Both the position numbers and the translations under genes were made by a program. Below are positions 6,493-64,000 of a stretch of DNA of 64,000 nt, in pieces; the first letter of the stretch is position 1, and each line of letters opens with the position of its first letter. This DNA is from Candidatus Sungiibacteriota bacterium (GTDB lineage: Bacteria; Patescibacteriota; Minisyncoccia; Sungbacterales; HO2-52-23), in assembly GCA_016432465.1 (NCBI GenBank), contig CP066690.1, positions 683,666 through 747,665 of the forward strand. The letters are read 5' to 3'. The notes below the pieces were generated by a model. It worked only from the letters and a program-made list of their open reading frames with translations. It had not been told where the DNA came from and did no database searches.

Positions 6493-8217
6493 ATGATCAC
6501 ATCAAAAGAAATAAGAGATAAATTTCTCAACTTCTTTAAACAAAGAGGACACGCCGTAGTACCTTCATCTTCGCTTATTCCCGGTGACCCGTCGGTTTTG
6601 CTTACCACCGCCGGCATGCAGCAGTTCAAGCCCTATTTTTTAGGTAAAGCAGACCCAGTGCATGATTTTGGTACAAGACGCACCGCCTCTATTCAAAAGT
6701 CATTCCGCACCTCCGACATAGACGAAGTGGGGGATGAGTCGCATCTTACTTTTTTTGAAATGCTGGGGCATTTCTCTTTCGGCGACTATTTTAAAAAAGA
6801 AACCATTGAGTGGACCTACGAGTTTCTCACGACGGTTTTAAAAATTTCTCCGGAACGTATTTGGGCATCAGTTTTTGAGGGTGATGATGCCATTCCTTTT
6901 GACCAAGAGTCTTATGATGCTTGGTTACGGTTTATCCCCGAGAAGCGCATTAAAAAAGGCGGGCGCGAAGGAAACGTGTGGGGTCCGCCCGGACCAGAAG
7001 GGCCTTGTGGGGCCGCCAACGAAGTTTATGTTGACGACTTGGAAGTCGCAACCCTTGTTTTTATGGAATACTACTGCGCCCAAGACGGCAGTTTGAGTCC
7101 GCTCGCAGATAAGGGGGTTGATGTTGGTTGGGGGTTGGAACGCGCGGCGAAGGTTATACAAAACGCGTCCACTGTTTTTGACACCGACCTTTTTCTGCCG
7201 TTTATGGAACTACTTCCGGCCGATCTAGAAATACGCATAAAACGTATCGTGACGGATCATCTGCGCGCCGTTGCTTTTTTACTTGCTGATGGTTTGCGTC
7301 CTTCCAACAAAGAAGCCGGATATATTTTGCGGCGTCTTCTGCGCAGAGCCCTTGTCTATGAACATATTTATAAAGTTCCACAGCACGTTTTTGACGCGGT
7401 TATTCACGACATAGTACATGAGTATGGGGAATTTTATCCGGAGCTTTTGCGGGAAAATGAGAATATACGGCAGGAATTTAACGCAGAGCGTCAGAAATTT
7501 GGGAGTACACTACAGCGCGGCCTAAAAGAATTAGAGAGAGTAAACACCATAGACGGCACGATTGCTTTTAATTTATATGAGACCTTCGGGCTGCCCTATG
7601 AAATTATCAAAGAGCTTGGCGGGGCGAGGGCCCAAACACTTTCGCATGAATCTTTTGACGGAGAATTTAGAAAACATCAGGAAATTTCCCGCGCCGGACA
7701 GGAAAAAAAATTCGGCGGGCATGGGTTACTGTTGGATACCGGAGAATTAAAAGCAGGCAACGAGGAGGAACTGAAAACCGTTACTCGTCTTCATACGGCC
7801 ACTCATCTCTTAAACGCCGCGCTCCATAAGGTGCTGGGAAATACGGTTGAGCAGCGCGGTTCGGATATTACTCCCGAGCGCACGCGTTTTGATTTTCTTT
7901 TTCCAAGAAAACTTACAGGCGAAGAGCTCAAAAAAATTGAAGAGCTGGTGAATTACGCTATTGCCAAAGATTTTCCGGTGAGCGCAAAAGAAATGTCTCT
8001 GGAAGAGGCTAAAAAATCCGGCGCGCTTTTTTTCTACGAAGGGCATTATCCGGAAAGGGTGAAAGTTTACACTATTGGGGACGATAAGGAAATTTTTTCG
8101 CAAGAACTTTGCGGCGGGCCGCATGTGACGCACACCGGAGAAATTGGTCATTTTAAAATAGTCAAAGAGGAATCCTCCAGTTTCGGCGTAAGACGCATCC
8201 GCGGCGTCATTGACTGA
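6493..8217 (+). CDS. alaS: alanine--tRNA ligase, short form (574 aa). It has the catalytic and editing domains but no C-Ala domain
   Basis: FEMLGHFSFGDYFK hallmark. Editing-domain motifs HTATHLL and CGGPHV. The length is about 300 aa short of canonical AlaRS. Confidence 0.85.
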   Translation: MITSKEIRDKFLNFFKQRGHAVVPSSSLIPGDPSVLLTTAGMQQFKPYFLGKADPVHDFGTRRTASIQKSFRTSDIDEVGDESHLTFFEMLGHFSFGDYFKKETIEWTYEFLTTVLKISPERIWASVFEGDDAIPFDQESYDAWLRFIPEKRIKKGGREGNVWGPPGPEGPCGAANEVYVDDLEVATLVFMEYYCAQDGSLSPLADKGVDVGWGLERAAKVIQNASTVFDTDLFLPFMELLPADLEIRIKRIVTDHLRAVAFLLADGLRPSNKEAGYILRRLLRRALVYEHIYKVPQHVFDAVIHDIVHEYGEFYPELLRENENIRQEFNAERQKFGSTLQRGLKELERVNTIDGTIAFNLYETFGLPYEIIKELGGARAQTLSHESFDGEFRKHQEISRAGQEKKFGGHGLLLDTGELKAGNEEELKTVTRLHTATHLLNAALHKVLGNTVEQRGSDITPERTRFDFLFPRKLTGEELKKIEELVNYAIAKDFPVSAKEMSLEEAKKSGALFFYEGHYPERVKVYTIGDDKEIFSQELCGGPHVTHTGEIGHFKIVKEESSSFGVRRIRGVID

Positions 8218-25746: not shown

Positions 25747-25894
25747 GCGGTTCCCTCGGCAATATGTTTTCTCGACACGACTCGCTCGTTCCAGCGACTC
25801 GCTCGCTAATGGTCGTCGCGATTTGTCCGACCTCGGTCGAACACCAAGCAAATCGCTCCTCCCATTGTCTCAAAAACATATTGCCTCGACCGCC
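25747..25894. repeat. roughly 150-bp element with imperfect terminal inverted repeats (GGCGGT..GGCAATATGTTTT) and an internal direct repeat CGACTCGCTCG x2. MITE-like
   Basis: Left arm 25747-25777. Right arm 25867-25894, reverse-complement match with a 13-nt exact core. Confidence 0.45.
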
Positions 25895-61157: not shown

Positions 61158-62351
61158 ATGACAAGAGATGTAAGAACATGGATTGAGATAAATCAAAGAT
61201 CGCTCCACCACAATGTGGAGCAATTTTTGAAGTTGATCCCAAAGAAGACTTGTCTTATGGCGGTAGTAAAATCTAACGCTTATGGTCACGGTCTCGTACA
61301 AGTTGCAAAATCTTTGCTTGCCCTCCGTAGCTTTAGCGAAGGAGGGTGGTTCGGAGTGGATTCCATTGTTGAGGGTCTGCGGCTTCGCAAAGAAGGCGTT
61401 AAAAATCCAATTTTTGTTCTGGGCGCCACACTTCCCTCACGCCTTGAGGAAGCAGCCAAAGAAAACATAATCATTACTGTTTCCAATTTTGAGATTCTAA
61501 AAGAGTTAAACAGAATAAAAAAACCTCCGGTCTTTCACGTAAAAATGGACACCGGCATGCATCGTCAGGGCTTTTTATCTACTGATATTCCCAAGGTTTT
61601 AAAATTATTGAAATCGTATCGTTTAAGGCCTCAAGGTATTTACACCCATTTTGCCGCAGCCAAAGATGCTGCCTATCCAACTTATACGTTGGAACAACTT
61701 AAAAAGTTTAATAGAGTGGTTTCCGATTTTAGAAAGGCCGGATTTTCCGCCAAAGGCGGATCCCCGTCTTCGCCCGGCTACGGACGGGCAGGCGCCTCGG
61801 GCGGAAAGAATTTAATACGGCATGCCGCGGCCAGCGGCGGTGCTCTTCTTTTCCCGGAGGCACATTTAGATATGGTGCGGATCGGCATGGGTTTGTACGG
61901 CTATTGGCCGTCGCCAGAAGCACAAATTGCAAAGCGCAATGCGCCGATCACCCTAAGGCCGGTATTGACGTGGAAAACAGTTGTGAGCGAGACCAAGGAG
62001 ATACCGCGGGACTCGTTTGTGGGCTATGATCTTACAGAACGAGTACCTCAAGATACAAAAATTGCCGTCCTACCGGTTGGGTATTGGCACGGTTACGATA
62101 GAGGCCTTTCGGGCCTAAGTGATGTATTGGTACGCGGCAGGAGGGTTAGGGTGCTTGGTCGTGTCAGTATGGATATGATAGTGGTTGACGTGACAAAAGT
62201 TTCTAAAGTTAAGGCGGGCGACGAGGTTACGCTTGTTGGACGAAGCGGTAAAGAGGTAATCTGGGCGGACGAACTTGCACTTAAAATCGGCACAAGTCAG
62301 TATGAATTTTTAACTCGTATTAACCCCTTGATTAAAAGATTTATAGTATGA
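61158..62351 (+). CDS. alr: alanine racemase with a low-complexity Gly/Ser/Ala insertion
   Basis: PLP-Lys motif AVVKSNAYGHG and the C-terminal beta domain. Confidence 0.85.
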   Translation: MTRDVRTWIEINQRSLHHNVEQFLKLIPKKTCLMAVVKSNAYGHGLVQVAKSLLALRSFSEGGWFGVDSIVEGLRLRKEGVKNPIFVLGATLPSRLEEAAKENIIITVSNFEILKELNRIKKPPVFHVKMDTGMHRQGFLSTDIPKVLKLLKSYRLRPQGIYTHFAAAKDAAYPTYTLEQLKKFNRVVSDFRKAGFSAKGGSPSSPGYGRAGASGGKNLIRHAAASGGALLFPEAHLDMVRIGMGLYGYWPSPEAQIAKRNAPITLRPVLTWKTVVSETKEIPRDSFVGYDLTERVPQDTKIAVLPVGYWHGYDRGLSGLSDVLVRGRRVRVLGRVSMDMIVVDVTKVSKVKAGDEVTLVGRSGKEVIWADELALKIGTSQYEFLTRINPLIKRFIV

Positions 62352-63181
62352 ACACCAGCCGTATTGTTTATACATCCAAAGAGACTAAGGGCCCGGGGAT
62401 TTTATCAAAAAAAGCGCCGAAGATAGCTGGAGTCTCTGTGCTTTTTATACTGCTGGTCAGCAGTCTTTTTTATTTAGCGCGGTTGCCCAATTGGCAGGTT
62501 GCTAACTTTAGTTTCTCCGGCCTGAAAACGCTTGATCAAAATATGCTGCAGAAAAAGGTTATGAAAATACTTGAGGGTAACTATGCGCTTATTATTCCAA
62601 AAAGATCTTTCTTTTTCGTTAATTCTGATAAATTATCTAAGGCAGTTTTAAATGATTTCCCCAACATTCAGTCCGTTTCCGTCACTAAAAAATTTCCAGA
62701 TTCCGTTAAAATTGCGGTTGAGGAACGTGAGCTTTGGGGGATTTTTTGCGCTAAAGCGGTCAAAAAAGACGTTGCGGCGCAATGCGTTTACGTTGACAAA
62801 ACCGGTTTTGCCTACGAGCAGGCGCCGGATTCTGCAGGATTTCTTATAACCAGAATAAACACTGAAGGATTTTCTCCGGAAGTGCCGTCCCAAATTCTTG
62901 AGCCGCCCCTTACAGAACGGATGCTGTTTTTAGCCGAAGAACTTAGGAAAAACTTGGGCTTGGAAGTTATAGGATATGAACTTTCTAAAAAAGTACCGCG
63001 CGAAATTTGGGTTGTGACCAGCGAAGGTTTTAAAATTTACTTTAATAAAGATGATGATTGGGTTAATGCTTTTAGGGTCTTAAAAACAGTTTTGGATGAA
63101 GAAATAAAAGATAAACGGCCGCAACTGGATTATATTGATCTTAGGTTTGGAAATAAAGTGTTTTACAAGCTACTGCCATAA
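62348..63181 (+). CDS. ftsQ: cell division protein FtsQ/DivIB (POTRA domain)
   Basis: N-terminal TM segment. POTRA and FtsQ beta-domain pattern. Confidence 0.6.
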   Translation: MNTSRIVYTSKETKGPGILSKKAPKIAGVSVLFILLVSSLFYLARLPNWQVANFSFSGLKTLDQNMLQKKVMKILEGNYALIIPKRSFFFVNSDKLSKAVLNDFPNIQSVSVTKKFPDSVKIAVEERELWGIFCAKAVKKDVAAQCVYVDKTGFAYEQAPDSAGFLITRINTEGFSPEVPSQILEPPLTERMLFLAEELRKNLGLEVIGYELSKKVPREIWVVTSEGFKIYFNKDDDWVNAFRVLKTVLDEEIKDKRPQLDYIDLRFGNKVFYKLLP

Positions 63182-63227
63182 AACTTAACTCTTGGTGGAA
63201 GATAAACATGGTGTATAAAAATGTTTA

Positions 63228-63254
63228 GGGTTCCCATTGCTGGGAACCCTTTGG
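63228..63254 (+). terminator. rho-independent terminator after ftsQ
   Basis: GGGTTCCCA-ttgc-TGGGAACCC followed by TTTGG. Confidence 0.5.
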
Positions 63255-64000
63255 TACTGTGATGACCCATCCCTAACGGACGGGAGCTTACCTTACACGA
63301 AGCCGGACACTCCTTCTACTCCTTTCTGCCCGTTTTATGTACGGGCGGGCCGTATGGAGTGGGCGCCGTTAGACATATGGGGCGGGGAGGTGCCAGCAGT
63401 AGCCCCGGCCTGGATCACGAACAAACGTATGGCTCGAGGACTCCTTACTGGGCCTTGCCCGCCCCCCCAGGAGTGGTGTTGCCCGCCCCCAAAATAGTGT
63501 GGCAGGCCACCCTCCCCCAACGGAGCGGCGGTACGGCGGGCTCAAACTGCCATTCCCCGCCGTTATACCGCTGCCCCTCCCGCAAGGTTCCCACGCGGTC
63601 GCCAGTTAAGAGCGATTTTCAGCCTTGTGCTGGGTGGCCTCTCGTAAGGTAGGCCCACTGCCCAGCGGCCTAGCGCGGGGGAACCTTGTTAAAGGAATTA
63701 TGTTAAATGGGCTTTCCCTGACTACTACTACCCCGTCGGGCAGCAGCTCAAGGAGGACGCGCCGTCATGGCCGCTTTAGCCCCCATACCCCGAAGAGACG
63801 GTTACCTCGGCCGAGGTCCTCTCCTGCTGCCCCATAGATCGGGGGCTCGGGATACTTCGAACCCGGCCAACCACTGAACTGGCGCCAGCTCAATGGTTGG
63901 GCTTGCAAACGCCAGTTCTGGTGAAGAAAGCTGGCGTACCGAGCCTGGTTCCCGCCCTGCATGCAATCAGAGGCAGGGAAGGGACTCGGGTAGGTTGAGC
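63255..64000. ncRNA. large GC-rich (~62%) structured non-coding region of unknown class. It continues beyond the window end
   Basis: No credible ORF in six frames. Many GC-rich helices, UUCG and GNRA-type capped hairpins, long-range complementarity (CAAGGTTCCCACGCG / CGCGGGGGAACCTTG) and a 34-nt palindrome. Confidence 0.45.

Follow-up and report, generated by a model that had tools for sequence, protein, structure and literature searches.

What is encoded by the GC-rich block that follows the cell-division gene ftsQ in Candidatus Sungiibacteriota, a member of the candidate phyla radiation (CPR)/Patescibacteria? The block lies at the end of a 64,000-nucleotide (nt) stretch of assembly GCA_016432465.1 (contig CP066690.1, positions 683,666 to 747,665, forward strand), hereafter the window, in whose coordinates positions are given. 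A first-pass annotation made from the letters alone had described the block as a large structured non-coding element. We favor, with more confidence than doubt, the view that the minus strand here carries an independently transcribed gene for a non-coding, highly base-paired RNA of ~830 nt. As such, it would be a large structured non-coding RNA (ncRNA), probably restricted to its lineage and new as an RNA family, with no described family matching. Transcription, strand, ends and function of this RNA are inferred from the sequence.

A GC-rich, non-coding and stably folding block

The block stands out by its composition. In 300-nt steps from position 63250 on, its GC content is 0.62, 0.64, 0.62 and 0.61, while values in the preceding 5 kb range from 0.35 to 0.58 and all 600-nt bins in the rest of the 64-kb window stay at or below 0.52; with a genome GC of ~45%, the block departs by 16 points. 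The contrast of ~62% against ~46% reported in the first-pass annotation is thus borne out, and so is its description of the reading frames as Pro/Gly/Arg-rich and non-coding. The longest open reading frame (ORF) in the block has 97 amino acids (aa) and the longest stop-free frame 128 aa, no Pfam domain is matched by any frame of the block, and its minus sense contains no ORF of at least 10 aa preceded by a Shine-Dalgarno (SD) sequence. A 105-aa frame running across the 5′ domain described below has no homologue among 5.8 billion proteins.

The sequence 63230–64000 folds far better than expected from its dinucleotide content on both strands, with z-scores of the minimum free energy (MFE) of −4.67 (plus) and −5.25 (minus), and none of the dinucleotide shuffles was equally stable. 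The helix-packed character claimed at first sight therefore holds, and the individual elements named at that time were recovered by a repeat finder: the long-range complementarity at 63583–63597 / 63674–63688 (15 nt, 93% complementary), the nested stem GGTACGGCGGG...CCCGCCGTTATACC with arms at 63524–63540 / 63556–63572, and the 34-nt near-perfect palindrome at 63867–63900 (88% complementary as DNA). The gene ftsQ itself (POTRA_1; 62348–63181, plus strand), which we used as synteny anchor, is on the same strand as alr and serS.

Promoter and terminator motifs bracket the block on the minus strand

The window ends inside the block. Three Logan contigs from different runs (L001–L003) carry an FtsQ that is 100% identical to that of the window, match the window base for base over 1.7–2.7 kb and reach 128–136 nt past its end. 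On these contigs, the GC-rich sequence stops ~50 nt (about 51) past the window end and is preceded, on the minus strand, by the near-consensus promoter TTGACA-17-TGcTATACT (window-equivalent 64058–64086, outside the window), which has an extended −10 TG and agrees with the consensus at 11 of 12 positions. Only three other sites in the 64-kb window show a comparable extended-promoter pattern, and no plus-strand promoter at the block reaches 9 of 12. At the opposite end, the minus strand forms a candidate terminator hairpin at 63227–63250 (AGGGUUCCCAGCAAUGGGAACCCU, then AAACAUUUUU) with 10 pairs, six of them GC, and a pairing probability of 0.98 in the full-length fold. This hairpin is located 46 nt beyond the stop codon of ftsQ and, approached from the other side, probably serves as terminator of ftsQ as well.

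Since minus-strand promoter and terminator bracket the block, we interpret it as an independent RNA gene of ~830 nt and not as a plus-strand element. The candidate ~831-nt RNA would have its 5′ end at window-equivalent ~64051 and its body in the window at 63221–64000 (minus strand), and it is probable that the block forms a minus-strand transcription unit convergent with ftsQ. A further hint comes from a 14-bp hairpin at 63868–63899: its minus sense pairs throughout and includes two G-U pairs, which become two A-C mismatches on the plus sense. As no gene lies downstream on the RNA's strand, a role as leader or riboswitch is impossible. The earlier delimitation thus needs revision: the block as such stands, its coordinates do not, as it starts at ~63221 and runs ~51 nt past the window end on the identical contigs, and the plus strand, implicitly assumed at first, gives way to the minus strand.

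Two observations concern the surroundings of this unit. A perfect 30-nt palindrome, TGCACTTAAAACCGATCGGTTTTAAGTGCA, lies upstream of the RNA promoter at L001 2791–2820 (window-equivalent ~64107–64136). Contigs L001 and L003 stop precisely there, and L002 stops within the palindrome, which probably acts as terminator of the upstream gene and made the assemblies break off. In addition, contig L096 (SRR12113429; 1952–3620) encodes a SerS identical to that of the window, but the next genes are gatA/gatC, on the opposite strand, in place of alr-ftsQ, which reflects either a strain-level rearrangement or a chimeric assembly.

Predicted architecture of the RNA

The full-length minus-sense RNA is predicted to fold, with an MFE of −400.6 kcal/mol, into a chain of ~12 locally closed domains of high pairing probabilities. 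From the 5′ end, the chain starts with a 5′ junction, whose 3′ two-thirds lie in the window at 63922–64000 (minus) and comprise helix C (CCGAG/CUCGG) around hairpin D, with the loop CUCUG..UGCAU, followed by GGUACGCCAGC. Then come the 14-bp hairpin at 63868–63899, which is the palindrome noted above (pairing probability 0.98), a Y-shaped domain (63785–63855) and a 17-bp interrupted hairpin domain (63709–63782), all on the minus strand. An AU-rich linker of 20 nt, AUUUAACAUAAUUCCUUUAA (63689–63708, minus), is the only long unpaired segment of the MFE structure and separates its two halves. It is followed by a multi-branch (three-way) domain (63583–63688, minus) with a closing helix of 10+4 bp, CAAGGUUCCC.CGCG / CGCG.GGGAACCUUG (pairing probability 0.95 and 0.89), which corresponds to the 15-nt long-range complementarity noted above, by several G/C-tract domains (63308–63572) and by the terminator. 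The G/C-tract domains at 63366–63572 (minus), which include the hairpin ACGGCGGG/CCCGCCGU, are lineage-specific and cannot be aligned to the homologue described in the next section; they contain a tandem 24-nt direct repeat at 63455–63502. A search of the window for targets of the 5′ loop (ATGCAATCAGAGGCAGG, up to three mismatches) matched only the element itself.

A homologue shares the promoter and the 5′ domain

By scanning GTDB species genomes with an FtsQ profile, we obtained 80 loci. Even the nearest FtsQ relatives are only 47% identical to the FtsQ of the window and 45–55% identical among themselves, and DNA similarity to the element was found in just one locus, L004 (FtsQ 47% identical). 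The match at L004 7319–7569, seen by blastn (E = 2e-13) and nhmmer, spans the promoter and ~160 nt from the 5′ end of the minus-sense RNA, whereas the remainder is unalignable. Over 171 aligned nt the identity is 58%; ftsQ DNA reaches 54% and alr DNA 65%, shuffled sequence gives 29 ± 7%, and two blocks of 9 and 14 nt, CTACCCGAG and CTCGGTACGCCAGC, are identical. The predicted L004 RNA measures only ~340 nt and ends with a clean intrinsic terminator.

In the shared 5′ domain, RNAalifold predicts an invariant helix A (GCUGGCG/CGCCAGC), hairpin B, helix C (CCGAG/CUCGG) and hairpin D. Together with the promoter-proximal position, these helices and hairpins define the candidate family A, formed by the window RNA and the L004 RNA. 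In place of the 14-bp hairpin of the window, L004 has the hairpin CCAAUC..GGUUGG, a single example that is consistent with helix expansion on a common scaffold. A covariance model of the 5′ domain (R1) scores 148.8 bits with the full copy, 130.7 with L004 and 83.5 with the copy truncated by the window end, values that are circular as the model was built from the same two sequences. In related loci totalling ~920 kb (875 kb + 46 kb), model R1 found no further member. When metagenomes were scanned for a pattern made of the two invariant blocks (TACCCGAGN{25,55}CTCGGTACGCCAG), seven matches were returned, which we judged to be due to chance and discarded: they lie in high-GC or unrelated, seemingly protein-coding sequence and show no similarity outside the pattern.

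Known RNA families

We searched Rfam 15 on both strands at gathering thresholds and, with lax filters, at E ≤10. At gathering score, the window yields two tRNA matches only, and at E ≤10 both the part of the RNA in the window and the full-length RNA give only chance matches of the miRNA/snoRNA type, with none to the models of RNase P, tmRNA, 6S, SRP, group I/II intron, OLE, GOLLD, ROOL or HEARO. Nor was a known family matched in 12 related loci at gathering score or in any of the syntenic RNAs described below; L004, L021 and L104, searched also at E ≤10, gave only chance matches of the same type. ARAGORN detected no tRNA-like or tmRNA gene in L001, L004 and eight syntenic loci and, in the window, only a tRNA-Ile. 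A scan of all Rfam families including the downstream extension, proposed at the outset as a check, has thus returned no routine RNA.

Among the specific candidates of the first-pass annotation, RNase P RNA was also examined by eye for its P4 helix. In 10 of 35 complete CPR genomes, sub-threshold searches were needed to detect RNase P RNA, the helices of which can be extended or missing (Lui et al. 2021, PMC8172020). In our case, neither RF00010 nor RF00011 matches at E ≤10 in the window part, the full RNA, L004 or the syntenic RNAs. A P4-like pairing can be drawn in the window RNA between AAGGGCCGG near the 5′ end and CCGGCUU near the 3′ end, with a GG bulge. The P4 helix of RNase P, in which CR-I (GGAAAGUCCGG) pairs with CR-V (ACAGAAnCCGGCUUA) around a bulged U, is the most conserved part of the molecule. 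The 5′ strand of the drawn pairing is not conserved, reading AAGGGCCGG in the window and ACGGGCGG in L004, and is hence incompatible with P4. The faint RNase-P-like and type-B-like resemblances reported earlier find no counterpart in any covariance-model match.

The other candidates fare no better. For tmRNA, ARAGORN recognizes no tRNA-like ends and Rfam gives no match; for a group I/II intron, no Rfam match is found on either strand, the element lies between genes and has a promoter and a terminator of its own, and a GUGYG start and a domain V are missing. 6S RNA has no Rfam match either, and its ~180-nt rod with a central bubble differs from the predicted 831-nt chain of branched domains. 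Inspection by eye for an intron-containing tRNA, a class C group II intron after a terminator, an 11-nt tetraloop receptor and, in L104, tmRNA-like ends found the defining motifs missing or not conserved. OLE, GOLLD, ROOL and HEARO show no covariance-model match on either strand, and the neighbors, which are ftsQ/alr/serS in the window and PMT_2 in relatives, do not correspond to an oapA, prophage/tRNA or IscB/IS605 context, a comparison that covers the ftsQ side. A blastn search against phage records and two scans of viral contigs gave no match. What survives of the initial list is the large novel RNA, though not its membership in the OLE, GOLLD, ROOL or HEARO families, while the divergent RNase P RNA, tmRNA and group I/II intron find no support.

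The ftsQ-downstream gap in other Sungbacteria

Downstream of ftsQ and convergent with it, many relatives have a gene for a PMT_2 glycosyltransferase of 600–650 aa. Where the gap between them is long, it usually holds a minus-strand consensus promoter, a non-coding stretch 10–20 GC points above the genome and a minus-sense intrinsic terminator. The minus-strand RNAs predicted in this manner have approximate lengths of 880 nt (L012), 785 nt (L021), 640 nt (L028), 1000 nt (L008), 420 nt (L007) and 400 nt (L104), and partial copies occur at the contig ends of L084, L099 and L103 (minus). The promoter layout TTGACAGA..GATTTG.TATA[AC]T is found at the same place in L004, L012 and L021, similar consensus promoters are present in L008, L028 and L104, and minus-sense intrinsic terminators with clear U-tracts in L021, L028, L004, L084, L099 and L104.

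The sequences of these gap RNAs fall into families that follow FtsQ relatedness: family A (window and L004), family B (L084/L085, L099, L103 and L104) and family C (L021 and L028), with L008, L012 and L007 as singletons. We detected no core common to all syntenic RNAs, and k-mer sharing is not above expectation. In an all-against-all blastn, only the pairs window–L004, L004–L005 and L015–L021 are linked, the L004–L005 link being the ftsQ-proximal stretch that constitutes the three-way-junction motif (R2) described at the end. Two readings fit these data, namely one old RNA gene that has diverged beyond alignability or a variable slot refilled by different elements. The second is favored by the pseudo-ftsQ end of L021 described below, by small ORFs that take the place of an RNA in some gaps and by breaks of several contigs within the region.

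Families B and C, both candidate RNA families, each have recognizable traits of their own. Family B copies (L104 1605–2020, L103 2690–3075, L084 4811–5020, L085 1381–1590 and L099 3175–3528, all minus) adjoin ftsQ, have promoter and terminator, and contain the conserved core CCUUCCC..GGGAAGGC.CCGGGAG..CCAUGCGCGUGGAUCGCUAGGUC.CCGG. The complete copy of ~400 nt is in L104, and the contig-end copies in L084 and L099 have 66% GC, compared to 44–46% for those genomes. An nhmmer profile of family B matches neither the window nor L004. Family C is characterized by a module of ~150–180 nt, CCAUGCACGCGUUC ... GGAAUUCAGCAUUCC ... AGAGGAGCC.GAUGA..GG.UC.ACACC, which occurs in tandem in L021 (7152–7330 and 7368–7512) and once in L028 (7138–7294), always on the minus strand, and shows eight compensatory pairs; a model of this module (R3) finds no copy in the window element.

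Some gaps also contain other sequences. L018 has a small SD-preceded ORF (28 aa), and zinc-ribbon-like ORFs are present in L005 and L025. In L021, ~130 nt past the real end of ftsQ, a pseudo-copy of the ftsQ 3′ end (SFGNKVFIN; ~6957–6985, plus) suggests a past insertion or recombination at the site. In L104, a small GIY-YIG nuclease gene (2181–2450, minus) lies between the PMT-side gene and the RNA promoter and is flanked by repeated CGAGC.TGTCGAGAAG motifs, as read by eye, which hints at mobile DNA in the same gap.

Discussion

With this in mind, we propose how the block might work. Transcription would start at the near-consensus sigma-70 promoter just beyond the window end, proceed towards ftsQ and stop at the hairpin 63227–63250. 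The first ~125 nt would form the conserved junction, with helix A around hairpin B and helix C/hairpin D, and the remaining ~700 nt would be lineage-specific, GC-rich helix expansions. We assume, with moderate confidence, that the RNA acts in trans as a stable and abundant scaffold that is protein-bound or self-assembling; the conserved 5′ domain might then be the functional or recognition core, to which the GC-rich arms confer stability or bulk.

Several findings weigh against this interpretation. There is a single homologue, similar over ~160–170 nt only, so that ~85% of the RNA is without comparative support. The 25 pairs predicted by RNAalifold for the 5′ domain include two compensatory and one half-compensatory pair, from an alignment of two sequences, and these pairs are suggestive only. 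The ftsQ-downstream gap varies from 4 to ~1500 nt (maximum 1510) among relatives and sometimes has small ORFs inside, which would suit a region that is variable or prone to insertions. As to the strand, the U-tract of the window terminator (AAACAUUUUU) is weak, a terminator-like hairpin is present on the plus strand as well, at the far end of the block, and the strand favored by the MFE is minus for the window and for L028, whereas it is plus for L004, L021, L008 and L012. Given this inconsistency across loci, we dropped MFE asymmetry as a criterion, and the strand assignment rests on the promoter and terminator motifs.

The alternative that survives best is that the block is a non-functional or decaying insert in a recombination-prone ftsQ/glycosyltransferase gap, its promoter and folding being incidental or remnants. 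The spread in gap length and the lack of sequence relation between gap contents of different clades would fit such an insert, as would the pseudo-ftsQ end in L021, the GIY-YIG gene beside the gap in L104, the deviation of the block's GC content from that of the genome and the fact that several contigs break inside such regions. However, promoter and 5′ domain have been kept between genomes whose FtsQ proteins are 47% identical, at a DNA identity similar to that of ftsQ itself. Furthermore, in all well-resolved cases a consensus promoter is paired with a terminator on the same strand, no part of the element is repeated elsewhere in the window, transposase or integrase genes and terminal repeats are missing, and phage or viral matches were not obtained. 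We regard a non-functional or decaying insert as unlikely.

Less probable still is that the plus strand is the functional one, be it as a long structured 3′ untranslated region of ftsQ or as a plus-strand RNA that begins right behind ftsQ and ends at the GGUGCGCCAGCGCACC hairpin. This terminator-like hairpin at the far end of the block, followed by CGCUAUCUUU, speaks for it, together with the plus-sense z-score and the lower plus-sense MFE of four syntenic RNAs. Yet the conserved, near-perfect promoter is on the minus strand, with nothing equivalent on the plus strand, and transcripts of ftsQ would be stopped by the ftsQ-proximal hairpin ahead of the block. The terminators of L021 and L028 have U-tracts on the minus sense only, and the two A-C mismatches of the 14-bp hairpin arise on the plus sense.

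We deem it very improbable that a divergent, helix-expanded housekeeping or other known RNA (RNase P, tmRNA, 6S, SRP or group I/II intron) has been missed by the covariance models. The need for sub-threshold searches that is frequent for CPR RNase P RNAs (PMC8172020), the RNase-P-like size of the L004 homologue (~340 nt) and the P4-like pairing would speak for such an RNA. Against it stand the blank results at E ≤10 with lax filters for the full RNA, L004, L021 and L104, the blank ARAGORN result, the P4-like strand that L004 does not conserve, the missing intron hallmarks (GUGYG start and domain V) and a promoter of its own outside any host gene.

Finally, that the block encodes one or more small or unusual proteins is hardly credible: despite small SD-preceded ORFs in the same gap of some relatives and stop-free frames of up to 128 aa in the block, the Pro/Gly/Arg-rich frames are those expected from GC-rich sequence, Pfam and SD evidence is missing on the scale given above, a 65-aa ATG ORF stops after 11 codons in L004, the 105-aa frame lacks homologues, and no gene is called in the block on the Logan contigs.

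Returning to the preferred minus-strand RNA gene, a wider hypothesis can be framed. The promoter-driven, GC-rich RNAs at the ftsQ/PMT_2 position (families A, B, C and the singletons; ~0.3–1.0 kb) might all descend from one ancient, fast-evolving gene specific to this CPR lineage. They would then constitute a new class of large RNAs, acting as scaffolds or catalysts, in which a small core is conserved and the arms can expand. We put this forward tentatively, as a possibility that is at present rather doubtful.

Bacterial ncRNAs of more than ~500 nt are very few, and most of those characterized are ribozymes, ribonucleoproteins or RNA-only assemblies. The large structured bacterial ncRNA is thus known as a kind, while the RNA family described here appears to be new. 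OLE RNA (~600 nt, Bacillota) resembles the block RNA as a large structured stand-alone ncRNA of unknown biochemistry, with a high expression that for the block is only presumed, and it is flanked by membrane-protein genes, as the block RNA is by ftsQ and, in relatives, by the PMT_2 glycosyltransferase gene. OLE, however, is strongly conserved from end to end in many species and has oapA and related genes as neighbors; unlike OLE, the block RNA is conserved only in the ~125-nt 5′ domain, in two lineages of a different phylum, and does not match the OLE model of Rfam.

GOLLD and ROOL RNAs typically reside in prophages or beside tRNAs, and their cores are widely conserved. GOLLD (~800 nt) and ROOL (~580 nt) form RNA-only multimeric cages (PMC12286853). 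They share with the block RNA a similar size class, an ornate multi-domain fold, predicted in our case, and the lack of an evident associated protein gene, whereas the block RNA has no match to their models, no phage or viral match and no adjacent tRNA and is restricted to its lineage.

CPR RNase P RNAs and the block RNA are both GC-rich, promoter-driven and single-copy, with variable helix extensions on a smaller core, yet to our knowledge the 830 nt of the block RNA are about twice the length of any RNase P RNA. Moreover, RF00010 still detects CPR RNase P RNAs when thresholds are lowered, and P4 and the CR regions are retained in them (PMC8172020), while the block RNA yields nothing at E ≤10.

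An analogy may also be drawn to scaffold RNAs such as telomerase RNA or Y/6S-type RNAs, in which the locus and a small core are kept and the arms change in length and sequence. Similarly, the clade-specific candidate RNAs of the gap occupy the same position and are mutually unalignable; unlike for the telomerase-type RNAs, a partner protein, an activity and a common ancestry of families A, B and C are only conjectured.

CPR genomes are very small, the longest contig of the present one measuring ~0.92 Mb, and an 830-nt, promoter-driven non-coding gene with 61% GC is costly to keep in such a genome. If transcribed and functional, it would be a new large RNA in a barely explored phylum and would offer a natural size series, from 340 nt in L004 to 830 nt in the window, for locating the functional core. 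If, on the other hand, the block is variable junk, the region still marks a recombination hot spot beside cell-division genes.

Additional RNA features of the window

Apart from the block, we identified a separate RNA motif of ~125 nt that folds as a three-way junction. Its copy in the window (25758–25885, minus; 87.8 bits, E ~1e-15) is flanked by a murA-like gene (EPSP_synthase family) and by mreB. Elsewhere, it was found just 3′ of ftsQ in L004 (6937–7061), L005 (6894–7025), L008 (6902–7025) and L014 (6910–7036), and at other positions twice each in L100 (1122–1244 and 5850–5979) and L101 (83–205 and 4811–4940), where one match per locus reaches 94.8 bits and the other a much weaker 46.9 bits. 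A closing stem of 20–24 bp is joined to the conserved junction strands CAAUGGGAGG, GCuUGGU, CGACCCUUAGCGA, CGCUGG and GAGCGUGUC. In an alignment of five sequences, 93% of cells are paired, and compensatory changes are seen in 37 of 48 pairs; this degree of pairing is reached by none of 500 shuffles, and slid controls pair at 34–44%. G-U pairs outnumber A-C pairs by 9 to 2, an excess that favors the minus sense. The motif matches no Rfam 15 family and had no match in the viral-contig scan. It might be a gene for a small RNA, a terminator of ornate shape or a structured repeat, and it is better supported as a structured RNA than the ~830-nt element.

At the start of the window, a tRNA-like sequence (417–480, plus) scores 36 bits with the Rfam tRNA model and is not called by ARAGORN. 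Its D-arm is nearly absent, its anticodon loop (GAU) is identical to that of the bona fide tRNA-Ile at 264–335, and it may be a degenerate duplicate or an unusual tRNA without D-arm.

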